Below are positions 40,341 to 58,710 of a stretch of DNA of 64,000 bases, piece by piece (position 1 is the stretch's first letter; every line of letters starts with the position of its first letter). The stretch spans positions 960,001 to 1,024,000 of the forward strand of contig CAWGHO010000003.1 in assembly GCA_963822445.1 (NCBI GenBank), read 5' to 3'. The position numbers and the translations under genes were made by a program. Source of the DNA: an uncultured Acidobacteriota bacterium. GTDB lineage: Bacteria > Acidobacteriota > Thermoanaerobaculia > Gp7-AA8. The notes under the pieces are model-generated. The model was not told where the DNA came from and searched no databases. It was given only the letters and a program-made list of their open reading frames with translations.

Positions 40341-40586
40341 GGAATCTTCTCCTTCTGCTCTCTCTGGAGGAGGGACGGAGGACCCCCTCGTCCCTACCCC
40401 GATCATTGACCATGATGAGGCAGAACCGCCGGGTCACGCTCGCCGATGAACGCATGACGGGCAGACGTTCAGCCGTGAAGATGACTGCGAACGGTCCCGC
40501 GGGAGTTCGTCGTTTCGATGATCGCAGCAGCGGAACGCCGGCCACGTCGTTCCATGGAAAGACGTCGGAACGTAAGCTCGCCTTCC

Positions 40587-42797: not shown

Positions 42798-44476
42798 TGA
42801 TTTTCGCGGTCGCCTTGTTCGCAGCGACCGGGTTCGCAGCCGCGGGAATGGTTGCGCCGCTTCGCGTGGCCATCCCGGTGGAAGTCGCGAACGTCACGCC
42901 GTACACCGCCGGCGTGCCGGAGACCTTGCTGGATCTGGTCTACGACAAGCTCGCCGCGCCGTCCCCGTACCTCGGCGACGCCCGGCCCTGGCTGGCCAGC
43001 GCGATCGTTCCGGAGGGCAGCGACGGGCGGACGTGGCGCATCGAATTGAAGGACGGCATTCGCTGGCATGACGGGAAACCGTTCACCGCGGAGGACGTGG
43101 TGTTCACGCTGCGCTACTACCGCGACGGCACGCCGAACCGCTGGACGCATCACGTCAGCGACAATCCGAAGCTGACGGACATCGAGCCGCTCGGACCGCT
43201 GTCGTTGCGCATCCGATGCGAGCTGCCGTGTCCACTCTTCGACAAAGTCACCGCGGCCGATCTGGTGATGCTTCCGGCTCACGTCTGGAAAACGGTGACG
43301 CAGCCGCACCTGCATCACGGTGCGTTGATCGGCACCGGTCCGTATCGGGTGACGCAATTCGCCCCGGGCCGGTTTCTGCGCCTCGATGCCAACCGCGACT
43401 ATTTCGCGGGAGTCCCGCGCGTCGGCAGTCTCCTGGTCTCCTTCATCCGCAATCCCGCGACCGCGTTTGCGGCGTTGCGCGCGAACGAGCTGGACCTCGT
43501 CGCGTCGGCCGTGCCGCCGGAGCTCGTCGAGTCGCTGTCGCGCCGCCCGGGACTCGCGCTCGCGGACGGCGGCGCGCCGTTGTACGCCCTCGAGATGCGC
43601 ATCAATTTCGATCGGCCGCCGTTCACCGCGGCGGCGGTGCGTCGCGCCATCGCGCTCGCGATCGACCCTGCGGAAGTGGTGAAGCGTGTCGCGCTGGGAC
43701 AGGCAATCCCTGGCGACCGCTACCCGGCGCCCGCGAGTCCGTGGACGATGCCCGGGCTGCGGCAGTTGCACGGCGATCGCAAGGCGGCCATGCGCATCCT
43801 CGAACAGCACGGGTTGCGCGGAGCGCCGTTGCGATTGAGCCTCAAGGTCTCGAGCAGCGAGCCGCTGCACCAGCGCGCGGCCCAGGTCGTGGCCCGGCAG
43901 CTCGCGGCGGCCGGGCTGGCGACGCGGATCGAGGTCGTCGATCCCGCGCGCATGCGGGCCCTCTACTCGGCGCGCCAGTTCGACCTGATGATCGCCGAGG
44001 TCACGCCGCACAATCTCGCGGACCCCGATCAGCTCATGCAATCGATCCTCGGCGGGTACCTCTGGCGCGCCGGCCTCCCGAATCCGGAGATGGAGGCTCG
44101 CATCGCGCGGTGGCGGGCGGCGTCCACCGCGGACGCGAGAATGCGCGCGGGATTCGCGCTGCAGGAGCTGCACAGCAGGGAGCCGGCGACGCTGATGCTG
44201 TATTACCCCATTTCGCGCTACGCGTACCGCCCGCGCGCGTACGACGGCTGGCGCGGCGTTCCGGGCATGGGCGTTTTTCACAAGTGGTCGCTGCTTAGGG
44301 AACGACGGGAGGCCTCCGGCGGCCGGGCCGCGGGCCCGGACCCGCTAGTTGGCCTAGCCTCCGCGACACAGCCTCCAATCCTGCGACAGAGTGTCGCGGA
44401 GGCTAGGCCAACCAACGGGGTCCGGGGCCGTTGGCCCCGGCCGCCGGAGGCCCCCGTGGTTCCCCGACATCGATGA
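42797..44476 (+). CDS. Family 5 (peptide/nickel) ABC substrate-binding protein
   Basis: WHDGKPFTAEDVVFT, GTGPY, VRRAIALAID. Confidence 0.9.
   Translation: MIFAVALFAATGFAAAGMVAPLRVAIPVEVANVTPYTAGVPETLLDLVYDKLAAPSPYLGDARPWLASAIVPEGSDGRTWRIELKDGIRWHDGKPFTAEDVVFTLRYYRDGTPNRWTHHVSDNPKLTDIEPLGPLSLRIRCELPCPLFDKVTAADLVMLPAHVWKTVTQPHLHHGALIGTGPYRVTQFAPGRFLRLDANRDYFAGVPRVGSLLVSFIRNPATAFAALRANELDLVASAVPPELVESLSRRPGLALADGGAPLYALEMRINFDRPPFTAAAVRRAIALAIDPAEVVKRVALGQAIPGDRYPAPASPWTMPGLRQLHGDRKAAMRILEQHGLRGAPLRLSLKVSSSEPLHQRAAQVVARQLAAAGLATRIEVVDPARMRALYSARQFDLMIAEVTPHNLADPDQLMQSILGGYLWRAGLPNPEMEARIARWRAASTADARMRAGFALQELHSREPATLMLYYPISRYAYRPRAYDGWRGVPGMGVFHKWSLLRERREASGGRAAGPDPLVGLASATQPPILRQSVAEARPTNGVRGRWPRPPEAPVVPRHR
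44306..44456. repeat. ~150-bp palindromic element (GGCCTCCGGC family) in frame in the SBP C-terminus
   Basis: ggcctccggcggccggg...gttggcctagcctccgcgacac / gtgtcgcggaggctaggccaac...ccggccgccggaggcc. Confidence 0.85.
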
Positions 44477-45441
44477 AGCGCGCGGCACGGTTGTCCGGCT
44501 ACGTGGTCGTGCTGTGGCTCGGTGCGACAGCGAACTTCCTCCTGCCGCGGATGCTCCCGGGCGATCCGGTCGAGTTCCTGATCGGCGAGGAATCGAGCCG
44601 CCTCACCAGCGCGCAGCGCTCGGCGGTCCTGTCCCAGTTCGGACTGGAACGGCCGTTATCGGAGCAATACCTCCGCTACCTCGCCGGCATCGCCCGCCTC
44701 GACCTCGGCACTTCCGTCGGTCACGGCGCGCCGGTGACGCGACTGGTCGCCCAGCGTTTGCCATGGACGCTGCTGCTCGTCGGCAGTGCGATCGTGCTGG
44801 CCTTCGTGACCGGATTCATCCTGGCGGGCCTTTTTCACTGGGTCGGCAGCTCGCGCACGTCGTCGGCGCTGATGACCATCGTCGTGTTCCTCGGCTCGCT
44901 GCCGTCGTTCTGGACCGGCATGGTGGCGATCGCCGTGTTCGCGGTCTCACTCGGATGGCTGCCCAGTCATGGCGCGGCGCCGGTCGGGACTGCAGTCACA
45001 TGGATGAGCGTGTTGCGCCACGCGGTCCTTCCGGTGGCCACGCTCACGCTCGGCTATCTCCCTTCTGTGTTTCTCGTGGCCCGGGCGGCGCTGGAGTCGG
45101 CGCTGGGGGAGGGGTACGTCGCACTGGCCCGCTCGCACGGAGCCACACCGCTGCGCGTGCTCGTCCGGCAGGCGGCGCCGATCGCCGTTCTGCCGCTCGT
45201 CAATCAGTTCGCGATGAGCTTCGGCGTGCTCCTGGGCGGCACGGTCATCGTCGAAAGCGTGTTCGCCTATCCGGGGCTCGGGATGCTGCTGTACGAAGGC
45301 ATCCTCTCGCTCGATTTCCCGCTCGTGCAGGGCGTGTTTCTGCTGATGGTGTTCTCGGTCGTGCTGGCGAATGCCGCCGCGGACCTCGTGCAGCGGCGGC
45401 TCGATCCGAGACTTCGCGGAGGGCTGGACCTCACGTCATGA
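44473..45441 (+). CDS. OppB/NikB-type ABC permease
   Basis: NFLLPRMLPGDP, RLPWTLLL, VESVFAYPGLG. Confidence 0.92.
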   Translation: MKRAARLSGYVVVLWLGATANFLLPRMLPGDPVEFLIGEESSRLTSAQRSAVLSQFGLERPLSEQYLRYLAGIARLDLGTSVGHGAPVTRLVAQRLPWTLLLVGSAIVLAFVTGFILAGLFHWVGSSRTSSALMTIVVFLGSLPSFWTGMVAIAVFAVSLGWLPSHGAAPVGTAVTWMSVLRHAVLPVATLTLGYLPSVFLVARAALESALGEGYVALARSHGATPLRVLVRQAAPIAVLPLVNQFAMSFGVLLGGTVIVESVFAYPGLGMLLYEGILSLDFPLVQGVFLLMVFSVVLANAAADLVQRRLDPRLRGGLDLTS

Positions 45442-47705
45442 GCGTGCGCCGGATCGGAGCGGTTCTCGTCGCGATCATGGCGTCGCTCGCCGTCGCCGGC
45501 CCATGGATCGCTCACTACGAGCCGGATGCATGGATCGCCGCGCCGTTTCAGCCGCCGTCCGCGAGCCACTGGCTCGGGACCGACGACATGGGCCAGGACC
45601 TCTGGAGCGCGTGGCTGCACGGCGCGAGACATTCCGTGGTGATCGCGATGATCGCGGCCGTGGCCGCGACACTCATCGGCACCTTGATCGGAGCGGGCGC
45701 GGGCTATCGGCGAGGGGGATGGGATTTCGCCGCGATGCGTCTGGTGGATTTCTTTCTCACGCTGCCGTCGCTTCCTCTGGTGCTGGTCGTCGCGTTCTAC
45801 GCCGGCCCGAGCACGCCGATGTTGATCGCCGTGCTCATCTTCGGGTCATGGGCGCGTTGTGCGCGCGAGCTTCATCCGGCGGCGGCGGCTCTGCGCGATG
45901 CCGATTTCATCGTCGCCGAGCGCGCGATGGGAGCGACGGCGACCGGCATTCTCCTGCGTCACGTTCTGCCGGTGCTGTCGCCGATGATCTTCGCGCAGTT
46001 CGCGCGGCTCACGTACCACGCAGTGCTGCTCGACAGCGCGCTCGGGTTTCTCGGCCTCGGCGACCGGCGAGTGGTGAGCTGGGGTACTACGTTGTATTAC
46101 GCGAATGCGCGCGCGGCCTTTCTCGGCGAGTCGTGGTTGTGGTGGGTCCTGCCGCCCGGACTGGGCATCGCGCTGCTGGTCACCGGCTTCGCGCTGCTCG
46201 GCGTGGGCCAGCCGCGCGGCGCCGCGCTGCGGGCCGCGATGATCCCGCACGGACCGGCCCCGGATCCCGACCCGTCACAACTGCTCCAGACCGGCGATCT
46301 CCACGTGAGCCAATCGGGAACGCCGATCCTTCGAGGCCTCGACCTGCAGCTGGCGCCCGGCGAAGTGGTCGGCCTGGCCGGACTCTCCGGCGCCGGCAAA
46401 ACCACCCTCGTGCAGACGATCCTCGGACTTCTTCCGCGGGCCGAGATCGCGCGCGGCGGCGTGTGGCTCGCCGGCCAGGAGCTGCTGCGCATGCCCGAGC
46501 GTTTGCGCCGCCGAAAACGCGGGAGCGAGGTCGCATGGATCTCGCAGGCGGCGATGCAATCGCTCAATCCGGTGCGGACCATCGGCTCGCAGCTTCGGGA
46601 GGTCGCGCGTTTCGATCGCCGTAATCTCGATGTCGGCGGCCTGCTCGAACAGGTCGGCTTGTCGCGCGAGCTGAAGGATGCCTATCCGCATCAGCTCTCC
46701 GGCGGGATGCGCCAGCGCGTGGTCATCGCGATGGTTCTTTGCCGCGAGCCGCGCGTGCTTCTCGCCGACGAGCCGACCTCGGGCCTGGACAGCGATCGCG
46801 CGCGGGAGATCGTGGACCTGTTGACGCGCCTCTGCCGGGAGCGGCGCATGGCGTTGCTGCTGGTCTCGCACGATCTCGCATTGATCGAGCGCCATTGCGA
46901 TCGTCTGGCGATTCTCGATGAGGGGCGGATCGTCGAGAGCGGCCCCGCGGCCGCACTGCTCGCCGCACCGCAGAGCGCGGTCGCCCGGACATTGACGGCG
47001 GCGGCGCGGCCGAAGATGCGGCCGGCCGGCAACACCAACGATGGCCAGCCGGTCATTCTCGACATCGCCGCCGTCGATTTCGCGTACGCGACGGAAACCG
47101 TTCTCGAAGATCTCTCGCTGCAGATCCACGGCGGAGAATCGGTCGGGTTGGTCGGTCCGAGCGGCGCCGGAAAAACGACGATCGCGCGGCTTGCGCTGCG
47201 CCTGTTGCGTCCGGCGAGCGGCACGGTGAAGCTCCTCGGGCGCGACCTGGCGACGCTGCACGGCAGCGCCTTGCGCGCGCACCTTCGCCACGCCCATCTC
47301 ATCTTCCAGGATCCGTTCGCCGCGCTGCCCTGGCATCAGCCGGTGAGGACGATCGTCGCCGAGCCGCTGCGGCTCGCGGGCGTGAGCCGCGTCCGTCGCG
47401 CGTCCGCCGTCGCGCGTGCGCTCGCCGAGGCAGGGCTCGCGGAGAGCTACGCGGAGCGCAACGTGGACAGTCTTTCCGGCGGCGAGCGGCAGCGCGTCGC
47501 GCTGGCGCGCGCTCTCGTTGCGGAGCCTCGCCTGATCATTGCGGACGAGCCGACGTCGATGCTCGATGCGCCGATGAAATGGGCCTGGCTGGAACGGCTC
47601 AACACTTTACGCCGCGAGCGCGGCCTGGCCGTGCTGCTGATCACCCACGATCAGGCCCAGGCGGCGGCGTTCTGCGATCGCGTGGTGGCCGTCGAACCTC
47701 GTTGA
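45438..47705 (+). CDS. Fused OppC-type permease plus two ABC ATPase domains
   Basis: HWLGTDDMGQD; GLSGAGKT/LSGGMRQR/LADEPT; GPSGAGKT/LSGGERQR/IADEPT. Confidence 0.9.
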   Translation: MSVRRIGAVLVAIMASLAVAGPWIAHYEPDAWIAAPFQPPSASHWLGTDDMGQDLWSAWLHGARHSVVIAMIAAVAATLIGTLIGAGAGYRRGGWDFAAMRLVDFFLTLPSLPLVLVVAFYAGPSTPMLIAVLIFGSWARCARELHPAAAALRDADFIVAERAMGATATGILLRHVLPVLSPMIFAQFARLTYHAVLLDSALGFLGLGDRRVVSWGTTLYYANARAAFLGESWLWWVLPPGLGIALLVTGFALLGVGQPRGAALRAAMIPHGPAPDPDPSQLLQTGDLHVSQSGTPILRGLDLQLAPGEVVGLAGLSGAGKTTLVQTILGLLPRAEIARGGVWLAGQELLRMPERLRRRKRGSEVAWISQAAMQSLNPVRTIGSQLREVARFDRRNLDVGGLLEQVGLSRELKDAYPHQLSGGMRQRVVIAMVLCREPRVLLADEPTSGLDSDRAREIVDLLTRLCRERRMALLLVSHDLALIERHCDRLAILDEGRIVESGPAAALLAAPQSAVARTLTAAARPKMRPAGNTNDGQPVILDIAAVDFAYATETVLEDLSLQIHGGESVGLVGPSGAGKTTIARLALRLLRPASGTVKLLGRDLATLHGSALRAHLRHAHLIFQDPFAALPWHQPVRTIVAEPLRLAGVSRVRRASAVARALAEAGLAESYAERNVDSLSGGERQRVALARALVAEPRLIIADEPTSMLDAPMKWAWLERLNTLRRERGLAVLLITHDQAQAAAFCDRVVAVEPR

Positions 47706-47769: not shown

Positions 47770-49659
47770 ATGCGAGCTTTCCGGCTTTTGCTCCCGGTGT
47801 TTGCGCTCCTCGTCGCCGCGTCGACGTCGTTCGCCCAGACCCTTCCGACGAATCCGCAACCAACCTGCGTCGCTTCGCCACAACTGTTCAACTCGTGGTT
47901 TGCATCGGGATCGGCCAGCCGCGACGGGGTCGTGAACCCGGCCAACAGCATCACCTTCCAGCCGGCGAACAACTGCAACTTTTATCTCTGGTCGCACCAG
48001 ATGCTCCTCTGGCTGCTTTCTCCGGCGCCTTCCAACTACGGCGGTTCAGGCCGCGTCTTCGACTCCGGCGTCTTCTACGACGTCACGACGGTGTTCTCGG
48101 GAAAGCGCTACTTCGTTCAACACACGGTCTTCCCGCCCGACGCGACAGCGGCCGATAAGGCGCGCAGGCTGGTCAGCGTGCGCCCCGCGAAACCGGGTCC
48201 GAACGGCCTGCCGGCCGTGATCGACCGGCAGGGCAACATCATCGAGGTCCTGCCCGCGACGACCGGCCCCAACAACCGGCCGCTTCTGTTCAACCAGGCC
48301 GGCAAACTGGTCGAAGCGATGCGCGTCACGGTCGGCGCCGACAAGAAGGCCGTCTTTCACGACGCGGCGGGGAACGTGATCCCGAAGCCGAAGATCAACA
48401 TCCCGGCGAACCTGAAGGGCGCACGCGTCGGCGTGCGGTTCTTCACCACCGACAACTCGCCGATCATCGTTGATTCGGACGGCGTCGTCTTCGACGTCAG
48501 TCCGGCCCAGGCCGGCGGTTCCGCGGTGCTCCTCGCGCAGAACAGCTCCGTCGTCTACTACACGATCGTGGCGAACGACGTCTACGCCTACTACGCCAGC
48601 CAGATCAACTCGCAGAACCCTGTGCCGACGGCGCTGTTCCCGACGACGCAGGCCGACCTGAACGCGATCCAGCAGTACGCCGGCCAGACGTTCCCGGACG
48701 GCATCGCCCTCGCCGTGGAGGTGAAACTGGCGTGGGTCGACATCTCCGCCGTGCAGAACCCGGGCACCTACATCACCTCACCGGCGTTCGTGCCGACGTA
48801 CGACACGTCGAATCCGAAGAAGTGGGTGCCGACAGGCGAGAAGTTCACCACCCTGGCCCTGGTCGGCGTCCATTTCGTCGGCAGCGTGAACGGGCATCCG
48901 GAGATGGTCTGGTCGACCTTCGAGCACTTCGGCAACTCGCCGGTCGGCCAGTACCAGTACGTCAACACAGCGAACCAGACCGTCACCGTCCCAGCCAACT
49001 CGGCCGGAACGTGGCTGTTCTCGACGAGCAACTCCAGCGGTCCGTTCAACGTGGCGCACGCGAACTACCAGGCCCCGCCGTACATCCAGGGGAGTCCCAT
49101 CCCGAACCAGTCGGGTCAGTTCTTCAACGTGAGCCCGAGCGACACGCAGCTCGTCTATCAGTTCGGTGTGGCCCCGACCGGCGTCCCGAATCAGGAGGAT
49201 GCTACGCCGGCCGCCGCGAACACGGAGGTCCTCTCGAGCGACAACAGCGTGCTGGGCCAGCTCAACACACTGGCCAAAGGCGACGTCCGCGCGAACTACT
49301 ACTTCGTCGGCTCGACCTGGACGTTCGGCGGCTACGCGCCCACCGGGCAGTACAACCCGTCCACCAACAACGGCAACGGTGCCGAGATCGGGACGAACCG
49401 CCTCGCCAACAGCACGATGGAGACGTACCACCAGGCCACCGGCAACTCCGGCTCGAACTGCTTCACCTGCCACTCCGACACGTCGACCGGACACAAGGCA
49501 ACGACGGCCGTCAGCCACATCTTCAGCGAGATGATGCCGCTCGGCAGCGTCCTGGCGGTCTCGCCGACCGACGCGCCGCCTCCGAAAGTCATCCCGACGG
49601 GCACGAAGGCGAGCTCCGCAACGAAGGCGAACAGCCGCGAAACGAAGAAGAAAGACTGA
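47770..49659 (+). CDS. Large secreted mono-heme c protein of unknown function
   Basis: AGGAGG RBS, signal peptide, EVKLAW, LVGVHFVG..HPEMVWSTFEH, LANSTMETY, single CFTCH near the C-terminus. Confidence 0.78.
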   Translation: MRAFRLLLPVFALLVAASTSFAQTLPTNPQPTCVASPQLFNSWFASGSASRDGVVNPANSITFQPANNCNFYLWSHQMLLWLLSPAPSNYGGSGRVFDSGVFYDVTTVFSGKRYFVQHTVFPPDATAADKARRLVSVRPAKPGPNGLPAVIDRQGNIIEVLPATTGPNNRPLLFNQAGKLVEAMRVTVGADKKAVFHDAAGNVIPKPKINIPANLKGARVGVRFFTTDNSPIIVDSDGVVFDVSPAQAGGSAVLLAQNSSVVYYTIVANDVYAYYASQINSQNPVPTALFPTTQADLNAIQQYAGQTFPDGIALAVEVKLAWVDISAVQNPGTYITSPAFVPTYDTSNPKKWVPTGEKFTTLALVGVHFVGSVNGHPEMVWSTFEHFGNSPVGQYQYVNTANQTVTVPANSAGTWLFSTSNSSGPFNVAHANYQAPPYIQGSPIPNQSGQFFNVSPSDTQLVYQFGVAPTGVPNQEDATPAAANTEVLSSDNSVLGQLNTLAKGDVRANYYFVGSTWTFGGYAPTGQYNPSTNNGNGAEIGTNRLANSTMETYHQATGNSGSNCFTCHSDTSTGHKATTAVSHIFSEMMPLGSVLAVSPTDAPPPKVIPTGTKASSATKANSRETKKKD

Positions 49660-49704: not shown

Positions 49705-51948
49705 CTAGTTACCGTTGTTGACGCCAGCGCCTACCTGGAGATGCCAGAAGGCCGCATACACGCCGTTTTTCGCGAGCAGGGTCTCGTGGTCTCCGCGCTC
49801 GCATACCGTGCCGTCCTTCAACACCACGATCTCGCCGGCATTGCGGACCGTGGAGAGGCGATGGGCGATGACGAGCTTCGTGCGGCCCGGCGTGGCGATC
49901 GCGAGCGCGTCGAGCAACGCCGCCTCGGTCCGGCTGTCGATCGCCGACGTCGCCTCGTCGAGGACGAGGATCGGGGCGTCTTTCAACACCGCCCGCGCGA
50001 TGGCGACGCGTTGGCGCTCGCCTCCCGATAACCGAATCCCGCGCTCTCCCACCAGCGTGTCGTACCCATCGGGCATGGCCATGATGAAGTCGTGAGCGAG
50101 GGCCACGCGAGCCGCGGCGACGATGTCGTCGATCGTCGCGTCGTGCCGTCCGACGGCGATGTTGTCGCGGATCGTGCCGTCGAAAAGATACGCGTCCTGC
50201 GTGACCAGGCTGATCGCGCCGCGCAGCGACTCGAGCGCGAGATCGCGAATGTCGATGCCGTCGATCGAGATGCGGCCCGCGTTCGGGTCGTAGAAGCGCA
50301 GCAACAATTTGGCGATGGTGGTCTTCCCCGCGCCGGTCGGGCCGACGATCGCCAGCGTTTCTCCCGCGCCGGCGCGGAACGCGACATCCGAGATCGCTCC
50401 CGCCGCGCCGGGGTATTCGAATGCGACGCAGTCGAACACGATCTCGGCGCCGCGGCCGGAAGAGGGGGGTACTTCGCTGCCGCCGATGATGGTGGCTCGC
50501 GTATCCAGGAGCGCCTGGATGCGCGTCAGCGCGGCCTGCGCGTGCGTGAGCTCGTCGAAGAGATCGCCGAGGCGCGTCAACGGGTACCAGGTCCGGAAAC
50601 TGGCGTAGACCAGCGCCGAGAACATGCCGATGGACAGCGGCGTCTTCGAGGCGAAGAGTCCGAACGTGAGCAGCACGAGGTCGAAGCCGAGTGCGACCCA
50701 CATGCGCATGACCGGGTTGAATGCGGCCGAGAGTCGGCTCGCCGAGTCGGTGCGGAGCCGGTAGACGTCGCTCGTTTCCGCGAGCTGCGCGGCCACGCGC
50801 TCTTCGGCGGTGAAGCTCCTGATGGTGACCAACCCGTTGAGGCTCGTCGACAGCTCGAGCGCCAGACGGTCCGAGGCCGTGCGCACGTCGTCGTACGCCG
50901 GCCCGAGGCGCTCCTGAAACCAGCGCGAACTGATGATGGTGAGCGGGATCGGCACGAAGAGCAGCAGCGCGATCCACGGCGGCAGGAAGATCAGCGCCAC
51001 CAGCGGAATGAGGAGCACGGTCAGCGCCGAGACCGCCTCCATCGCCCGGTAGTCGAAGAACCGGCTGACCCTGTCGACGTCGTCGAGCAGGAGGTTGAGC
51101 AGCTCGCCGGAGCTCTTGCCCTCGATGTACGCCAGATCGAGCGTCTGGACGTGGCCATAGACCTCCAGGCGCATGTCCATGCGGATCCGCTGTCCAAGAC
51201 GGCGCCAGAGCAGCCACTGGACATATTCGAACAGGGAGCTGAGCGCCGCGCCGATCATGAGGAGGATGGAGACGAAGACGATCTGCCCGCCGACGGTGGT
51301 GATCCCGATGGCGGCAATCCACGCCGAAGCGCCGTTGGCGAGGATGTCGACGGCGAGGCCGATGCAGAACGGCAGGGCGAGGTCGGCAAAGCGCATGAGC
51401 AGGACCGCCACGCTCGGCGCGATCATGCCTTTGCCGTAACGCCGCCACAGGGCGGAGACCGGGTCGCGAGAGACCGCGCCGGCCGGCTCCTCGCGCAACT
51501 CGCGTCTGGCCCGTTTGACGCCGCCGACGATCGCCGCGGCTGCACCCACGCCGAGGGCGATCGAGCCGAGCGTGCTGGAAGCCCACGAGAGGATGGCGAA
51601 ACCGGCGGTCGCGACCAGGGCGTTGCGCACCCAGCGTCCGTCAAAGTCGGGAAGGACCGGCTCGTGAATGCGGGGCTCGCGTGGGGTGACCTCGGGACGA
51701 GGGTCGCGCGCCGCCAGCAACCGCACGCGGACTGCGACCTCCGCGACGACGCTTTCGGTCGGGCGATGTTCGTGAAACTGCACGAGGACGCCGCCGGTCG
51801 TCGCGTTCGCCGTCACCGCGGTGACGTCATCGAGGCCACGCAGATCGTCAGCCAGCTCCTCGGCGAGAGCCGGAGTGTCGCGGATCAACGGCACGCGCAG
51901 GCGAATTCTCCCCGGCAGGATGGAAACCGCCTCGAGCTGACTGCTCAT
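49705..51948 (-). CDS. ABC exporter (TMD+NBD) with N-terminal HMA2-like domain
   Basis: ILPGRIRLRVP...VTANATTGGVLVQF; GPTGAGKT, LSGGERQR, LDEATSAID, IAHRLST. Confidence 0.88.
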   Translation of the reverse strand: MSSQLEAVSILPGRIRLRVPLIRDTPALAEELADDLRGLDDVTAVTANATTGGVLVQFHEHRPTESVVAEVAVRVRLLAARDPRPEVTPREPRIHEPVLPDFDGRWVRNALVATAGFAILSWASSTLGSIALGVGAAAAIVGGVKRARRELREEPAGAVSRDPVSALWRRYGKGMIAPSVAVLLMRFADLALPFCIGLAVDILANGASAWIAAIGITTVGGQIVFVSILLMIGAALSSLFEYVQWLLWRRLGQRIRMDMRLEVYGHVQTLDLAYIEGKSSGELLNLLLDDVDRVSRFFDYRAMEAVSALTVLLIPLVALIFLPPWIALLLFVPIPLTIISSRWFQERLGPAYDDVRTASDRLALELSTSLNGLVTIRSFTAEERVAAQLAETSDVYRLRTDSASRLSAAFNPVMRMWVALGFDLVLLTFGLFASKTPLSIGMFSALVYASFRTWYPLTRLGDLFDELTHAQAALTRIQALLDTRATIIGGSEVPPSSGRGAEIVFDCVAFEYPGAAGAISDVAFRAGAGETLAIVGPTGAGKTTIAKLLLRFYDPNAGRISIDGIDIRDLALESLRGAISLVTQDAYLFDGTIRDNIAVGRHDATIDDIVAAARVALAHDFIMAMPDGYDTLVGERGIRLSGGERQRVAIARAVLKDAPILVLDEATSAIDSRTEAALLDALAIATPGRTKLVIAHRLSTVRNAGEIVVLKDGTVCERGDHETLLAKNGVYAAFWHLQVGAGVNNGN

Positions 51949-51991
51949 GCTTTCTCATCTCCCCGGGGACAATGACGCGGCGATACGCCGT

Positions 51992-52216
51992 CTAGACAAC
52001 CGGGCGCGGCACGGACTCTTCGCGCTCGACTTCCTGCCGGGCGTCCTCGAGGTCCTCGCGAATCTCGGCGGTCATCCGCTCGAAGTTGCGATTCATGCGG
52101 GCGATGCCTTTGTAGACGCCCTTCACCACCGGCCTCGCTCCGTCTTTGCCGACCAGCCCTTTGACGACGAGGGCGGTGGCGCCGCCGATTGCCGCGTATA
52201 GCAGTTTGTGCAACAT
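51992..52216 (-). CDS. Small PacL/FezA-like (DUF1490/DUF5132-type) membrane protein
   Basis: 74 aa: Gly-rich hydrophobic N-terminus, RPVVKGVYKG, acidic helix AEIREDLEDARQE; AAGGGAG RBS. Confidence 0.7.
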   Translation of the reverse strand: MLHKLLYAAIGGATALVVKGLVGKDGARPVVKGVYKGIARMNRNFERMTAEIREDLEDARQEVEREESVPRPVV

Positions 52217-52248
52217 GGGTGCTCCCTTTCTTCCGGGGACGGCTCTCT

Positions 52249-54453
52249 CTATCGCGATGGGGATCCGGAAAGAATATATGAGTTGGCGGTCTCGATGTCG
52301 ATTCCCTCGTCGGACGGGGGCCGATATCGGATGAGCCGGCTCGAGTTCGCGACCACCGCGATCGCGCCGGCGTTGTGAAGGATCGCGGCGATGAGCGGGT
52401 TGACGAGACCGAGGAGCGCGGCGATCACGCCGACGCCATTGAGGGCGAAGGAGAGTCCGTAGTTCTGTCGGATCACGCGCACGGTCTCGCGGCTGAGCCG
52501 GATCGCCGAGGCGACATCCCGGAGATCGTTGGACGCGAGGGTGAGACCGGCCGCGTCGATGGCGATGTCCGACCCTCCGGTGGCCATGGCGATCCCGAGG
52601 TCGGCGGCTGCCAGCGACGGAGCGTCGTTGATGCCGTCGCCGATCATTGCCACCCGGCGGCCGGACGCGCGGAGCTCCCGGATGAGCGCATATTTCTCCT
52701 CGGGCGACTGCGCGGCACGCCACTCGCTGATCCCCAGGTGGTCCGCGACATGCCCGGCGGCCTCGGCGCGATCGCCTGTCAGCATGATGAAGTCCGGAAC
52801 GAGACGACGCAGAGCGCCGATGGCCGCCGCGGCTTCGGCACGAAGCGGATTCGCGACCGTGATCGCGCCAGCCACTGAACCGGCGACAGCGACATAGACC
52901 ACCGATTCCGCGCGATGCAATTCAACGTGCGGTACCGTCACACCGGACCGCTCGAGGAGCCGCGCACTGCCGACGAGGACGGTTCCGGCGCCCAGGTTCG
53001 CCATCACACCCTCGCCCGGGTACTCCGTGAAGTCTCCCAGCCCGCCGCTGGTGATGCCGTAGTTGCGCGCGTGATCGACGATGGCGCGGCTGAGCGGATG
53101 GTGGGAGCGGTTGATCGCGCGGGCCGCGACCGTGATCAGCTCGACCTCGGTCATGCCGGCGGCGAACACGATCGTGCGGGCCACAACCGGCTTGCCGAGC
53201 GTCAGCGTGCCGGTCTTGTCGAAGACGACAACATCGATGGACGCTGCCGCCTCGACGTTCGGGCCGCCTTTGATCAGGATGCCCCGCCGGGCCGCGTTGC
53301 CGATGGCGGCGCTCACCGGCGACGGCGTCGCCAGACCGATCGCGCAGGGGCAGGCCATCAGCAGGATGGAGACGGCGCTGGCGACATTGCCGGTGAGGAG
53401 CAGCACGCCGAGTGCGAGCAGCACGGCGGACGGCACGAACACGCCGGCGAACCGTTCGCCGACCAGCTCGATCGGCGCATGCAGCGATTCGGCTTCCTCG
53501 ACGCGAAGAATCAGGCGGCCCATCACGGTGTCGGCGCCGAGGTGCTCGACGCGCAGAAGAAAGCCGCTCGCGGAGACGACGGTCGTGCCGGCCTTCACGT
53601 GATCTCCCGGCTGTCGCAGGACGGGGAGGCTCTCGCCGGTGATCGACGACTCGTCGATCGAGGCTTCGCCGCCGGTCACGTCGCCGTCGGCGGGCACGCG
53701 CTCGCCGGCGTAAACCGCGATCACATCGCCCGGTTTCAGCGCGGAGATCGGGCGGCGCACGTCGCCGGCGTCGGTCCGCAGCCAGGCGTAGCCGTCGTCG
53801 GCGGAGAGGAGGTTGCGGATGGCGGTGCGGGTGCGGCGCAGGGTCGAGGCATGGGCGTACTCGCCGATGTTGAGCAGCCAGACGATCGAGAGGGAAGTCA
53901 GGGTCTCGCCGGTCACGAGCGCGCTCACGACGCCCGCGCTGACCAGCGTGTCGGTGCTGACCTTCCGCTCGCGCAGCTCTTCCAGCGCGCCGCGGAAATA
54001 CCGCTTCGCCGTGAACAGCGCGACGAGCGTGGCCACGACTCCGCCGGTCGTTGAGACAGCGAGGGGGACGAGCGCCCACCGCGCCGCGAGCGACCAGGCC
54101 AGCGCCGCGCCGCCGAGGACCAGGTCACGGCGCAGCGCTCGCGGCGAGGCCGTGTGCTCGTGATGACCGTGATGATGGTGATGACCCGGACGCTTCGGGA
54201 GCGCGCGGACGATGACCTCTTCCACCTGCCGCAGATCGGTGGTCCCGACGAACGTGACCAGCACGCTGCCGGTGAGCGTGTTCACCTCGACGCCGGTCAC
54301 GCCCTCCCTGGAGCGAAGCGACAGGGACACGGCCTCGGCCTGAGCGCCGGAGCGCAGTGCCCGCGACCGCCACCGCGCCCGGCCGGGAGCACGCGAGGAG
54401 AGGACCAGAGACTCCCGGAGTCTCGAGGCAGCGTCATGGTCTGGTAGCGACAT
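52249..54453 (-). CDS. P1B-type heavy-metal ATPase, CtpC-like, with HMA2 domain and His-rich linker
   Basis: PGRARWR..VNTLTGSVLV, GHHHHHGHHEH, TGES, ACPC, DKTGT, GDGIND, AAILHNAGAIAVVANSSRL. Confidence 0.92.
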   Translation of the reverse strand: MSLPDHDAASRLRESLVLSSRAPGRARWRSRALRSGAQAEAVSLSLRSREGVTGVEVNTLTGSVLVTFVGTTDLRQVEEVIVRALPKRPGHHHHHGHHEHTASPRALRRDLVLGGAALAWSLAARWALVPLAVSTTGGVVATLVALFTAKRYFRGALEELRERKVSTDTLVSAGVVSALVTGETLTSLSIVWLLNIGEYAHASTLRRTRTAIRNLLSADDGYAWLRTDAGDVRRPISALKPGDVIAVYAGERVPADGDVTGGEASIDESSITGESLPVLRQPGDHVKAGTTVVSASGFLLRVEHLGADTVMGRLILRVEEAESLHAPIELVGERFAGVFVPSAVLLALGVLLLTGNVASAVSILLMACPCAIGLATPSPVSAAIGNAARRGILIKGGPNVEAAASIDVVVFDKTGTLTLGKPVVARTIVFAAGMTEVELITVAARAINRSHHPLSRAIVDHARNYGITSGGLGDFTEYPGEGVMANLGAGTVLVGSARLLERSGVTVPHVELHRAESVVYVAVAGSVAGAITVANPLRAEAAAAIGALRRLVPDFIMLTGDRAEAAGHVADHLGISEWRAAQSPEEKYALIRELRASGRRVAMIGDGINDAPSLAAADLGIAMATGGSDIAIDAAGLTLASNDLRDVASAIRLSRETVRVIRQNYGLSFALNGVGVIAALLGLVNPLIAAILHNAGAIAVVANSSRLIRYRPPSDEGIDIETANSYILSGSPSR

Positions 54454-54537: not shown

Positions 54538-55212
54538 TCAAACGCCTAGCCGCTCGCGGACGTTGTCGCGATAAACCCGTCCGACCCGCACGATCGAATC
54601 ATCGTTCAGCACCAGCGCGGCCGAGCGGACTCCGCGCACGTGGTCGAAATTCGCGATGTACGAGCGGTGAACGCGCGCGAAGCACGCCGGCAGCATCGAC
54701 TCGAGCGACGTGAGCGTCTTCTCGTGCAGGTGCACGTTGCCGTCGCGCAGATGGAGCTCGGAGTAATCGTCGGCGCCGCGGATGAAGGTGATGTCGTCGA
54801 CGCGGATCGTGCGCAGCTCGCGGCCCTTGCGGACGACCAGGCATCGCGCGCGGCCGGGTGACGTGCGGTCGGTTGCACGCTCGACGGCGACGCGCAGCCG
54901 TTCCGCCGTCCAGGGTTTTGCGACGAAATCGGCGACGCCGTAGTCGAACGCGCGAACGGCCTGCTCGTGATGCGCGGAGACGACCACCGTCTGAAAGGGC
55001 GAAGCGGATGCTTCTTCCAGCAGTTTGAAGCCATCGCTACCGTTCAGATTCAGATCGAGAAAGAGAAGGTCGAACCGGCGCGTCATCAGCGTCCGCGCGG
55101 CGGAAAGGGAAGGCGCGAGGTCGATCGTGGCGTCGACACCAACGATGTCCCGCACCATCCTCTCGAGCCTGCGCGCGACGATGGCTTCATCTTCGACGAT
55201 GGCGATCTTCAC
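54538..55212 (-). CDS. LytTR-family response regulator
   Basis: IVEDE, LFLDLNL, FVAKP, FARVHRSYIAN; GTG start overlaps the kinase stop. Confidence 0.92.
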   Translation of the reverse strand: MKIAIVEDEAIVARRLERMVRDIVGVDATIDLAPSLSAARTLMTRRFDLLFLDLNLNGSDGFKLLEEASASPFQTVVVSAHHEQAVRAFDYGVADFVAKPWTAERLRVAVERATDRTSPGRARCLVVRKGRELRTIRVDDITFIRGADDYSELHLRDGNVHLHEKTLTSLESMLPACFARVHRSYIANFDHVRGVRSAALVLNDDSIVRVGRVYRDNVRERLGV

Positions 55213-56879
55213 GCCGGCACCTCCAGCTCGGCGCGCCAAAGCGAGCCGGCGCGTCCCTGGCGGAAGGTCCAGGCCTCGCCCCACGCCTCGCGCAGACGCG
55301 CTTCGATGTACTTCGTGCCGGTTCCGTTCGCGCCGTTGCTCTCGTCGCCAGCGGGCGCTTCGAACACGTACCGCACGCGCGATCCCGATTGCGACGCCGA
55401 CAAGCGCAACGTGACTTTCGGTGACGCCGCGCCATGCGTTACGGCGTTCTCCACGAGCGTGTGAAAAACGGCCGGTGGCACGCGATGCGATCCGTCGATG
55501 CCTTCGACTTCGAGGTCGTACGCCACATCCTTGCGAAGGCTCATGTTCGCGAGATGGCTCCGGCAGAGCCGCAGTTCATCGTCCGCGCTGACCAGCGTCG
55601 CCGTCGACATCTCGCCGAGGATGCGCAGCTCGTCGGCCAGGGCGTCGATCATCCGCACGGCGGTTCGCGGTTCCTGCTCGATCCATTCGGAAAGCGCGGT
55701 GAGCGTGTTCATCAGAAAGTGCGGCTGCAGATGCCGCTTGAGCATCTCCACTTCCAGCCGCGCCGATCGCACGACCGCCTCGGTCTTCTGCTGCTGCTCG
55801 CGCCGCACTTCGAGCGCGTGCGAGCAGAGAAGGCAGACGAACAGGAAGATCGAGCGCGAAGTACAGCCGGCTGTCGACCCAGGCCCAGGGGTTCTGCCAG
55901 AACGCTGCGGTCGCACCACCGACGCCGATGAACGCGAGCACGCTGCCGTTCATCCGCCTGATGGCCGCCCACGTCGTCCACGCCGCGGCGACGCTGAGGC
56001 AGAGCGCGAAGATATAGCCGGACTTCGGATCCCAGCCCGCGCGGAAAGATCGGGATGATCGCGGCGATCAACGCCGTGAGTCCGAGCAGCGCACGCCCGA
56101 ACCTGCCCGGGAATCGCGTCACCACCAAGCGCCACGAGCAGCACGCCGGTCAGCCACGACAGCCCGACCACGCATCGCAGCCGCACGATGTGCCAGTCAT
56201 ACGTGTACCCGAACAGCGGCCGCCACGCCTCGGCGGCGAGCAACCCGCCCGCAGCGAGACAGAGGACGCCGAGGAGGAGGAAGGAAGCGGTCTCGGCGGG
56301 TGAGCCAGAACATCGCGAATGCGAAGACCGTGGTGAGGACGATGCCGCTCAGCGCCGCGAGGGCGATTGCGCGGTGCGCGTCCGCATCGCGATGATCCGG
56401 TCGTAATTGCCGAGCTGGATGCCCCAGTAGCCGTGCACCGGCGAAAAGCCGCGATGAAACACCGACATGCGGATTGCCACGGTGTGCATGCCCGGCGCGA
56501 TCAGACGATCGGGGACGTGGTAGTGCGCCTCGATCGGGCCCGGAACCTCGCTCGCTTTCGTGCGGCCGACGACACCTCCGCCGCCGATCTTCTCGCCGTC
56601 CCACCAGATCTCGTGCGAGGCCATGCCGCCGAAGTAGATGCCGAACGGGTGACCCGGCTTCACTTTGAATTCGGTCAGATCGAGTTTCAGGCGAACCCAC
56701 AGCGAATCGTCGGGTTGCGGCAACTTGTCGAACGACGCCTCGATCCACTGCGATTCATCGAGCGACCGCGCGGACCACGACGGATCGTGACCGACGCGAT
56801 AGCGCAGCGTTCCGTCCCACGCACGAGGCGGCTCGGCGGCGGCCGTCGTCGCCGCAAGAACGAGCGCGAGAAGGAGCAT
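55209..56879 (-). CDS. LytS/YehU-family sensor histidine kinase (multiple frameshifts)
   Basis: LKRHLQPHFLMNTL, TLVENAVTHG; periplasmic domain and TM segments in shifting frames. Confidence 0.82.
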
Positions 56880-56990
56880 GACCGGCACGGTAGCAGCGCG
56901 CGAGTGACGCTCACCGACGCGCGGCGTCGTTCGCCGATGCGCGCGCATCCGCGGTCGTGGGTCTGCGTACGTTCGTGTCGGAGGCAATGA

Positions 56991-58710
56991 ATGCTCATAC
57001 GAATGGCAGTACTGACAGTTGCGATCGCAGCAAGCGCCGCGGCCGCGCCGGCCCCTGCTAAAGCCACGTTCACACCGATGACGTTTGAAGCGCAGGACGG
57101 ACAGAAAGTCGCCGCGGAGAAAGGGGAGTTCACCGTCCCCGAGAACCGAAACAAACCCGGATCGCGGAACATCGCCATCCGCTTCGTCCGCTTCAAATCG
57201 ACCGCGGCGAATCCCGGGCCATCCCATCGTTTATCTGGCCGGCGGACCGGGAGGTTCAGGGATCGGCGCCGCGATGTCGACGCGCTTTCCGCTCTTCATG
57301 TCATTCCGCGAGCACGCCGACGTGATCGCCTACGACCAGCGCGGGACCAACGAGTCGGGCGGCGCGGATTTGCGGTGCTCCGAGGAGTACGTGATTGCAC
57401 CGAATCAACCGCTGGATCGGGTGCAAAGGCGGCGCGGCCATGGCCGCGCCATGCGCAAATGCGCCGAGCGGCTGACCGCGGCGGGAGTGGACCTCGCCGG
57501 CTACAACACGCGCGAGAGCGCCGCCGATCTCGAGGATCTCCGCAAAGCCCTCGGCGCGGAGAAGCTCGTGCTCTGGGGCATCAGCTACGGGACGCACCTG
57601 GCCGCGGCCGATGCTGCGCTATCACCCGCGATCCGTCGAGCGCGTGATCCTCGCGGGGATCGAAGGGCCCGACGACACGTACAAGCTTCCCAGCGATCAG
57701 CAGACGTTGATGGAGGAGATCGCGCGTCTCGCGGCGCGCGACGGAAAGCATCCCGATCTCCTCGGCGCAATCGGAAAGCTCATGCGCCGAGCTCGAGGCG
57801 CGCCCGAAGTCGCGTGTCGCTCACGCATCCGCTGAACGATCAGACGGCGACGTTCGTCTTCGGCAAGCTCGACCTGCAGAGGGCGCTCGCCGACATGCTC
57901 TTCGCGCCGGATTCATTCGCGGCGATGCCCGATCTCGTCGCGCGACTCGAGCGAGGGCGACTGGACCGCCCTCGGACTGGCCGCCGGCCGCCGGCGCGAT
58001 TCGGACCCGGCGCCTCGGGCGATGTCTGTGGCCATGGACTGCGCGTCAGGCATCAGCGACGCGCGCAGACAACGCATCGCCGAGGAGGCGAAGCGGACGC
58101 TGCTCGGCGACGCGATCAACATGCCCTTTCCCGAGATCTGCGCGGCGGTGAATGTCCCCGACGCGGGCGACGCGTTTCGCGGCGCCGGTCGTGAGCGACG
58201 TTCCGGCGCTCCTGATCAGCGGAACGCTGGATGGCCGCACGCGGCCGCGGCAGGCCGAGGAGCTGCGGTTGACGATGCCGAACGCGCGAGCAACTGGTCA
58301 TCGAGGGCGCGGGACACAGCGACCCGCTCTTTCTCTCCTCGCCGAAGATCCTCGAGGCCATGAAAGCGTTCCTGCGCGGCGAGCCGTTGCGCGAGCGCTA
58401 TCTGACCGCGCCGCCGGCGACGTTCCTCGCCGCGCGCAAGGTCGCCGCAGTCGGCGACGACGTGCTCGGACGCTACGTGGGCACTTACCGGATCGACGAG
58501 AAGAACGCCCGCCGGGTGATCAAGGCCGGCTCGGTGCTGTACACCCTTCGCGAAGGCAGCCAGCCCTTCGCGATCCGGCCGGCATCGGAGACCGAGTTCT
58601 TCTACGAGGCCACGCCGAGCACGATCCGTTTCGAGGTGAAGGAAGGAAAGGTCGTGGCGATGGTTTTTCGCGGACCGGACGGGGTGGAGCAGCGGGCGGT
58701 GAGGGAGTAG
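56991..58710 (+). CDS. Secreted alpha/beta hydrolase (TAP-like peptidase) with DUF3471-like C-terminus (multiple frameshifts)
   Basis: VPENR, YLAGGPGGSG, DQRGT, DLEDLRKALG, WGISYGT, GTLDGRT, GAGH; YVGTY C-terminal domain. Confidence 0.82.

Follow-up and report, generated by a model that had tools for sequence, protein, structure and literature searches.

The window analysed here is a 64,000 nt stretch of DNA (contig CAWGHO010000003.1, positions 960,001–1,024,000) from an uncultured Acidobacteriota bacterium of the Thermoanaerobaculia. It contains a triad of minus-strand genes encoding a P1B-ATPase, a 74-amino-acid (aa) protein, and an ABCB-type exporter of the ATP-binding cassette (ABC) kind, with intergenic gaps of 32 and 43 nt. 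A first-pass annotation of the window had claimed three co-oriented genes, and all three indeed lie on the minus strand, at the coordinates listed below. The motifs it quoted are also all present: ACPC, HNAGAIAVVANSSRL, the His-rich HHHHHGHHEH, and PGRARWR...VNTLTGSVLV in the ATPase, and PGRIRLR...ANATTGGVLV at the N-terminus of the ABC exporter. Its observation is thus borne out, and its interpretation holds in part. A scan for promoters and terminators gave no signal above that of shuffled sequences. In mycobacteria, the small protein PacL1 and the pump CtpC have been described as forming metal efflux platforms, or effluxosomes (Boudehen et al. 2021 preprint, 10.1101/2021.10.01.462712; EMBO J 2026, PMC13043812). 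With moderate confidence, we read the triad as an operon-like set that follows the PacL-CtpC principle, with two different transporters. Its features are:

52249–54453, minus strand: heavy-metal P1B-ATPase, 734 aa, CtpC-type ("P1B6-like") by its motifs (matches to TIGR01525, E1-E2_ATPase and Hydrolase; MACPCAIGL and HNAGAIAVVANSSRL)
54208–54408, minus strand: N-terminal CoBaHMA/HMA_2-like domain of the ATPase, residues 16–82 (HMA_2 23.2 bits, below the cut-off; PGRARWR; no Cys)
54154–54183, minus strand: His-rich linker HHHHHGHHEH of the ATPase, residues 91–100, directly before the first membrane helix (read from the sequence)
51992–52216, minus strand: 74-aa protein, predicted to be a divergent member of the DUF5132 family (28 close homologs; family profile retrieving true DUF5132 proteins; two-helix AlphaFold2 model)
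49705–51948, minus strand: ABCB-type (type IV) half-transporter exporter with an N-terminal CoBaHMA extension, 747 aa (ABC_membrane, ABC_tran)
51733–51942, minus strand: CoBaHMA/HMA_2 domain of the ABC exporter, residues 3–72 (HMA_2 39.4 bits; AlphaFold2 model)
51514–51627, minus strand: extra hydrophobic stretch of the ABC exporter, residues 108–145, between the CoBaHMA domain and the ABC membrane domain (hydropathy scan)

The two transporters begin with the same kind of domain. Their N-termini are 45% identical over 47 residues (pairwise E 2e-8), and the Pfam family HMA_2 (PF19991; cut-off 30 bits) matches the ABC N-terminus at 39.4 bits and the ATPase N-terminus at 23.2 bits; the 6.0-Mb genome holds no HMA_2 match besides these two heads. 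The shared N-terminal domain seen in the first-pass annotation is thus real, its ABC copy is HMA_2-like by a score above the cut-off, and the remark that both copies lack CxxC is accurate, there being no cysteine in either. The domain is not a new one, having already been published as HMA_2/CoBaHMA. PF19991 has been equated with CoBaHMA (Bruley preprint, 10.1101/2024.07.07.602159), a domain with an extra β0 strand, conserved basic residues on β1 including a G-R-x-R signature in the heads aligned here, loss of CxxC, and a conserved β0 histidine (Benzerara 2022, PMC8890360, for all but the signature). The AlphaFold2 model of ABC residues 1–80, built on a 9-row alignment, has a predicted local distance difference test score (pLDDT) of 92.5 and the element order β0-β1-α1-β2-β3-α2. 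In the ABC head, G13, R14 and R16 are invariant across 21 fused ABCs, and the G-R-x-R basic signature is invariant in the aligned CoBaHMA heads. The position of the β0 histidine is occupied by Ser in both window domains and by His in 5/9 aligned domains. The shared Arg-rich, Cys-free head of both transporters is the published CoBaHMA domain.

In a Foldseek search with the CoBaHMA model, no solved structure reached E≤1e-3; the top row was the KipI-like YbgJK, and the HMA domains of CzcP, ZiaA and MerP were among the weaker rows. A cluster search with the ABC N-terminus led to HMA_2 clusters at 0.76–0.83, which are leads only, while the whole ABC protein led to generic ABC clusters only. A locus search with the single N-terminus as query returned one locus. 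Gaschignard 2024 reportedly mentions architectures with "membrane proteins involved in transport".

The reported ions of CtpC are Zn2+ and Mn2+. The window ATPase scores 497 bits against TIGR01525 (cut-off 346.25) and matches PF00122 and PF00702, which places it among the heavy-metal P1B-type pumps. Two points bear on its subtype. Firstly, CtpC is termed "P1B6-like" on the basis of CPC in transmembrane helix 4 (TM4) and HN in TM6 (Boudehen et al. preprint, 10.1101/2021.10.01.462712), and the window ATPase carries MACPCAIGL (CPC) in TM4 and LHNAGAIAVVANSSRL (HN) in TM6. The pump alignment gives MACPCAIGL and HNAGAIAVVANSSRL for the window pump and its three closest relatives. FezB, the ferrosome pump (P1B-6), has D[Y/F]SCA as its defining TM4 motif and HNxxT as that of TM6 (Grant et al. 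preprint, 10.1101/2020.01.10.902569); the window ATPase has MACPCA and HNAGA instead. Eight other HMA_2-bearing pumps in the alignment are FezB-type (DYSCG/DFSCA with HNATT/HNGTT), and the other two (P0113, P0133) lack both the CPC and the SC motif in TM4. Secondly, the window ATPase shares 42% identity (over 392 aa) with the PacL-linked ATPase of Mycolicibacterium frederiksbergense, versus 31–33% with FezB-type ATPases. Because of its CPC and HN motifs and its 42% identity to a PacL-linked pump, the window ATPase is best classed as CtpC-type and not as a ferrosome pump, in agreement with the CtpC likeness originally proposed.

The N-terminus of the PacL-linked actinobacterial ATPase scores 29.9 bits with HMA_2, and Grant et al. 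note the R-rich N-terminal motif for CtpC as well. At least 120 loci matched the back-translated motif HNx4AVVxNSSRL in a scan, and 68 of the 80 titled loci are Actinomycetota by title. In 5/5 such genomes searched, a DUF1490 (PacL) gene was found on the pump-start side, no more than ~2.5 kb from the motif match; L177 is the one locus in which the pump open reading frame (ORF) was itself read, and there it directly follows the PacL gene. All four aligned members of the window clade (P0001, P0069, L026, P0078) retain the HH[ED]H core ahead of the first membrane helix, and the His-rich linker probably binds metal.

The first-pass annotation had also offered a ferrosome-like system as a candidate, in which the cluster would build a lipid-bounded metal-storage organelle. 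CoBaHMA/R-rich domains and small hydrophobic proteins are indeed hallmarks of fez clusters, and other CoBaHMA clusters in the phylum carry FezB-type pumps (L019, P0068). Against this, the ATPase has MACPCA and not D[Y/F]SCA, the genome has only two HMA_2 domains, and Pfam and NCBIfam scans of the neighbouring genes (37.5–61.8 kb) detected none of the fez partners: no stand-alone FezC-like protein (HMA plus two transmembrane helices), DUF4405, FeoA-domain or ferritin-like gene. With the wrong TM4 motif and no partner genes found in these scans, the ferrosome reading was rejected; we consider it very improbable, and the idea, being unsupported, can be set aside for the window locus.

Other loci in the phylum are of separate interest. 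At L019 (G007:C13) and L021 (G127, Geothrix), FezB-type (DYSCG/DFSCA) pumps are accompanied by another two or three HMA_2 proteins; among these, one matches the full 154-position profile, with a score of 143 bits. Both loci look like true fez-type clusters in Acidobacteriota. At L018 (G090:C74), a CoBaHMA-bearing P-type ATPase gene adjoins a Na_Ca_ex (CAX-type) exchanger gene, which recalls the cax gene beside Microcystis ccyA.

The 74-aa protein, encoded between the two transporters, consists of a hydrophobic segment (residues 5–23), a basic stretch (24–43, net +5), and an acidic tail (44–74, net −5). Its AlphaFold2 model shows a helix at 2–22 and a long helix at 28–68 (pLDDT 76.7; predicted template-modelling score, pTM, 0.35), in agreement with the build of DUF5132, a membrane helix followed by a long soluble helix (Bruley preprint). 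The protein has 28 close homologs of 70–78 aa, and E51, E54, D58, E62 and E66 are invariant or nearly so, divergent family members included. Pfam DUF5132 (PF17195) matches 11/21 aligned family members, all below the cut-off (best E 1.8e-4). Running the family profile against 1.84 billion representatives retrieved 6 proteins at E≤0.001; three were inspected, and the profile's retrievals P0048 and P0050 are true DUF5132 proteins (45.6 and 41.5 bits; cut-off 25). The Pfam model itself is too short for genome scans: over 301 genomes it gave no match above its cut-off and missed the window's own gene. From these profile matches, the 74-aa protein is probably a divergent DUF5132 member.

The relation to PacL is less direct. 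The first-pass annotation had called the small protein a PacL/FezA-like scaffold; its build and gene position are PacL-like, but its membership of DUF1490 is not supported. DUF1490 (PF07371) and DUF6110 match 0/21 family members at E≤10, while a true PacL homolog scores 140 bits on DUF1490 with the same library. The C-terminal His motif of PacL is also absent: the window protein ends in ...EREESVPRPVV, and five PacL homologs end in HxHxH. Of the families proposed for the scan, then, HMA_2 was found, DUF5132 appeared weakly in 11/21 relatives, and DUF1490 and DUF6110 in none of them. A possible bridge is the protein beside the HMA_2 pump at L040, which matches DUF6110 (31.3 bits; cut-off 26), DUF5132 (15.6 bits) and also the profile of the window family; according to Boudehen et al., DUF6110 and DUF1490 are related.

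Two observations concern DUF5132-like sequences elsewhere. P0047 (L036) is a 313-aa protein of which only the first 47 residues match the small protein, the remainder being phytase-like; it looks like a gene fusion or an assembly join. At L029:7970-8574 (G209:C8), two adjacent small DUF5132-like genes lie beside an integrase-like ORF, with no HMA_2 match nearby.

The third member of the triad matches ABC_membrane and ABC_tran, and its best solved relatives are generic ABCB exporters. None of 25 listed NCBIfam families reaches its equivalog cut-off; the exporter is not an MsbA equivalog (best MsbA_lipidA 375 bits vs cut-off 602). Residues 108–145 probably form a helical hairpin, because a single membrane pass would invert the ABC core. 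Searching longer proteins with a profile built from nine CoBaHMA heads gave 198 hits. Among the 120 matches listed, 18 contain ABC domains (14 from the window clade and 4 others), and most of the non-ABC proteins are P-type ATPases, including giant HMA_2-bearing P2-type ATPases. In a maximum-likelihood tree of ABC cores, with an outgroup of only 5 paralogs from the window genome, 10 CoBaHMA-ABCs from three lineages group together (99/98 support). The window ABC head is 42–47% identical to other fused-ABC heads and 45% identical to the neighbouring ATPase head. Since the fused ABCs form one clade and the heads are equally close, local borrowing of the domain from the neighbouring ATPase is rejected; the acquisition supposed in the first-pass annotation did not take place locally. 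The CoBaHMA-ABC fusion is old and mobile.

The other two lineages show what company the fusion keeps. In acidobacterium G209, the fused ABC is flanked by thioesterase, MbtH, cupin and glycosyltransferase genes (a cluster of the nonribosomal peptide synthetase, NRPS, type), with no ATPase within ~7 kb and a DUF5132-like 71-aa gene directly after it (E 1.4e-4). In an Acidovorax metagenome-assembled genome (MAG), it lies among genes for a type III polyketide synthase (PKS), an FAD-monooxygenase, a methyltransferase and a P450; in a Pseudorhodoferax MAG, it is accompanied by a small gene and no pump. Both of these Comamonadaceae MAGs have a DUF5132-like gene ~4 kb downstream of the CoBaHMA-ABC (E ~1e-5; DUF5132 17–19 bits), no ATPase within 10 kb, and the fused ABC as their sole HMA_2 gene. 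The usual company of a CoBaHMA-ABC is, accordingly, a biosynthetic cluster and a DUF5132-like gene. For the expectation that such fusions occur alongside both a small protein and a P-type ATPase, the outcome is divided: a DUF5132-like gene is nearby in the other two lineages, and a P-type ATPase is absent there. We found no publication that places an ABC exporter within a system of the PacL or fez type, in a search that left aside Gaschignard 2024 and the fez supplements, where one might be listed; the text of Grant et al. mentions ABC transporters only among flanking iron-uptake genes and not as fez members.

The triad itself is conserved only in close Thermoanaerobaculia relatives. HMA_2 occurs in 9/301 sampled genomes of the phylum at E≤0.001, and in 0/5 genomes of the same family. 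A Thermoanaerobaculia MAG (L026) contains the full triad at 70–81% identity. Of 7 metagenome loci with the small gene, 6 have upstream DNA, and in all 6 the ATPase precedes the small gene, the seventh locus being truncated; the ABC exporter follows the small gene in 4/5 loci with at least 300 nt of downstream DNA.

These patterns bear on the possibility that the ABC exporter is functionally unrelated to the pump, exporting a metabolite and merely adjoining the ATPase in this lineage. The presence of CoBaHMA-ABCs in biosynthetic clusters without an ATPase in 2/3 lineages (NRPS-type in G209; a type III PKS/P450 island in Acidovorax) is what such independence would look like. However, the ATPase-small-ABC order, with short gaps, is kept in every close relative with enough DNA, and the Pfam and NCBIfam neighbour scans revealed no biosynthetic genes beside the window triad. 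We regard a functional independence of exporter and pump as rather improbable.

A wider association, between CoBaHMA and DUF5132-like genes, reaches beyond the triad. In Geothrix, a DUF5132-like gene directly precedes a CoBaHMA-ATPase gene (a FezB-type pump, L021). In a Burkholderiales sample, HMA_2-type matches occur in 16/251 genomes, the loci examined spanning only ~3 kb each; in three of these genomes, none of them used in building the profile, the window-family profile matches genes beside the HMA_2 gene (L037, a true DUF5132 at 50.9 bits; L040, the DUF6110 protein described above; and L047, 18 bits). The Microcystis ccyA neighbourhood contains two DUF5132 and two CoBaHMA genes (Bruley preprint). 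DUF5132-like genes thus recur beside CoBaHMA carriers.

Around the triad lie four further genes of relevance:

47770–49659, plus strand: secreted 629-aa protein "X", with a signal peptide and a C-terminal CxxCH (triad-linked in relatives)
37539–40406, minus strand: 955-aa multicopper-oxidase-like protein (MCO; Cu-oxidase_2, Cu-oxidase_3; triad-linked in one relative)
54538–55284, minus strand: LytTR response regulator (Pfam), upstream of the ATPase on the same strand
55209–55919, minus strand: His_kinase-domain protein, 236 aa (Pfam), upstream of the ATPase on the same strand

Protein X has no Pfam or NCBIfam family match. In the window, its gene is downstream of, and convergent with, the ABC gene; in L032 (7-1488) and L034 (1832-3751), homologs (69–71% identity) immediately precede the ATPase on its own strand, and another is found in L182 (G259). 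A C-terminal C-x2-C-H or C-x3-C-H is present in 4/4 homologs examined. The MCO has an N-terminal extension of ~390 aa and three paralogs in its own genome at 29–43% identity. In L034, a single strand carries MCO (77% identity), X (71%), pump, small gene and ABC exporter; in L032, X, ATPase, small gene and ABC exporter are collinear.

This layout raises the alternative that the locus serves to mature or feed an extracytoplasmic oxidase: the pump would deliver metal to the periplasm for the MCO and the CxxCH protein—the metal being a cofactor or an oxidised substrate such as Mn(II) or Fe(II)—and the ABC exporter would supply a second component. The collinear arrangements in L034 and L032 and the presence of X and MCO beside the window triad speak for it, and Padilla-Benavides 2013 reportedly ties CtpC to the metallation of secreted proteins. 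Yet L026 has the triad but, in the 7 kb upstream, neither MCO nor X; the X homolog of another acidobacterium, G259, stands by itself; and the TM motifs of the pump appear unlike those of Cu(I) pumps. Such a dedicated feeding role is somewhat unlikely, although it comes closest among the alternatives considered.

The remaining neighbours are noted for completeness. Between the oxidase and X (40686–47705, plus strand) lie genes for a TonB-dependent receptor, a NikA-like family-5 binding protein, a permease, and NikD/NikE-like ATPases, the last scoring slightly below their NCBIfam cut-offs; as a group, these genes look like an importer of the nickel or metallophore type. The LytTR two-component pair was considered as a dedicated regulator of the triad and rejected, there being no response-regulator match upstream of the ATPase in L026, L032 or L034. 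The LytTR gene overlaps the 236-aa His_kinase ORF by 76 nt; this ORF lacks a sensor region and may be a split or mis-started LytS-type kinase, and the next ORF upstream (56349–57227, minus strand, 292 aa) belongs to no family. At 8979–18695 (minus strand), the window contains a single 3238-aa ORF with coding-like GC content at third codon positions (GC3).

Taken together, the best overall explanation is, in our view, a PacL-CtpC-like set in which a shared adaptor serves two transporters, and we hold it at about an even balance of belief. PacL proteins bind the N-terminal domains of their pumps (Boudehen et al.). By analogy, the small protein is probably the shared adaptor of pump and ABC exporter, as PacL is for mycobacterial pumps. 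The proposed arrangement is as follows: (i) the N-terminal helix would anchor the 74-aa protein in the inner membrane, leaving an acidic stripe (E51, E54, D58, E62, E66) on its long, putatively cytoplasmic helix; (ii) the ATPase and the ABC exporter would each present a cytoplasmic CoBaHMA domain with the invariant basic strand G-R-x-R; (iii) the acidic helix would dock on the basic face of both, so that one small protein could stabilise, cluster or co-regulate the two transporters; and (iv) the CtpC-type pump would, judging by its type, export a divalent transition metal. The substrate of the ABC exporter is most likely an organic molecule, perhaps a chelator or a metal complex, rather than a bare ion, because the exporter's clade elsewhere serves secondary-metabolite clusters. 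The exported species may feed or protect an extracytoplasmic metal-oxidising system, a link suggested because the triad is collinear with MCO and the secreted CxxCH protein in the closest relatives; it points to an extracytoplasmic metal-oxidising or metal-dependent process.

Several observations weigh against this explanation. Firstly, the window 74-aa protein on its own matches no Pfam family, DUF5132 included. An hhalign comparison of its family with five PacL homologs, from shallow inputs of 17 and 5 rows, gives 6% probability (E 0.0062) over 29 columns of the cytoplasmic helix. It pairs R43, E46, R53, D58 and E62 of the window family with the invariant R52, E55, R62, D67 and E71 of PacL, and E55 and E71 are among the glutamates replaced in the published 3EA variants (Boudehen et al.); this correspondence is suggestive only, and could be chance between two charged helices. 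Secondly, L035 has ATPase and small gene with no ABC exporter, a lipoprotein gene following the small gene, whose product (60% identity) is the most divergent among loci with downstream DNA. The ABC exporter is therefore dispensable for the ATPase-small pair: pump and small gene are the core, and the exporter is an addition within a sub-clade. Thirdly, the narrow outgroup limits the ABC tree, a second DUF5132-like copy in G209 lies far from any HMA_2 match, and the L026 and G259 arrangements loosen the connection with MCO and X. Finally, the view of Gaschignard 2024, as quoted elsewhere, is that the partner of CoBaHMA is anionic lipid and not protein.

That view leads to a further alternative: CoBaHMA as a lipid-reading or regulatory head that acts without a protein adaptor, its basic face binding anionic lipids and tuning its own transporter. 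The small protein would then be a separate entity, for example a membrane-curving or chaperone-like helper of the ATPase only. It has in its favour that the lipid hypothesis is the published one for CoBaHMA (again Gaschignard 2024 as quoted) and that L035 keeps the ATPase-small pair without an ABC exporter. However, DUF5132-like genes accompany CoBaHMA-ABCs that are the sole HMA_2 gene of their genome, with no P-type ATPase nearby, and a role as helper of the ATPase only is hard to explain because of these genes; moreover, PacL proteins do bind the N-terminal domains of pumps, as noted above from Boudehen et al. On this evidence, we judge a purely lipid-directed head to be unlikely.

If the shared-adaptor explanation is carried further, DUF5132, DUF6110 and DUF1490 may form one adaptor class whose acidic helix reads the basic face of CoBaHMA and gathers P1B and P2 ATPases and ABC exporters into shared platforms; in the window, pump and ABC exporter would serve the MCO system. 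We offer this only tentatively, and think it more doubtful than the two-transporter reading of the triad. PacL-organised efflux platforms have so far been described only for P-type ATPases of Actinobacteria. The window locus and its related loci suggest that the small acidic-helix protein is the missing partner of CoBaHMA, and that the same tag has been placed on an ABC exporter. If true, bacteria would have a portable means of recruiting different transporters to one place, and the CoBaHMA domains of ferrosome and calcium-carbonate biomineralisation clusters would gain a concrete ligand.

Three known systems invite comparison. With the CoBaHMA family and ccyA, the window heads share Pfam PF19991, the extra β0 strand, the basic signature and the lack of CxxC, and differ in the replacement of the β0 His by Ser in both. 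DUF5132 genes lie beside CoBaHMA genes in the ccyA neighbourhood of Microcystis, as a DUF5132-like gene does in the window; calcyanin is absent at the window locus. With ferrosome (fez) clusters, the likenesses are an R-rich N-terminal motif, borne by the pump and by further proteins of the cluster, a small hydrophobic protein as partner, and an HN motif in TM6. The differences are the CPC of TM4 in place of D[Y/F]SCA, and the lack, at the window locus, of any FezC, DUF4405, FeoA or ferritin-like partner found.

The closest counterpart is PacL1-CtpC. The pump is of the same type (CPC in TM4, HN in TM6, an N-terminal HMA_2-like domain), and the small gene adjoining it encodes one membrane helix with small residues and a predicted cytoplasmic acidic helix. 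The window system departs from this model in five respects: (i) its small protein is DUF5132-like and not DUF1490; (ii) the His motif is on the pump, and not on the C-terminus of the small protein; (iii) the small gene follows the pump, whereas it precedes the pump in L177, the one locus read; (iv) the host is a Gram-negative acidobacterium, whereas DUF1490 is reported only from Actinobacteria (Boudehen et al.); and (v) an unrelated second transporter, the ABC exporter, bears the same head as the pump.

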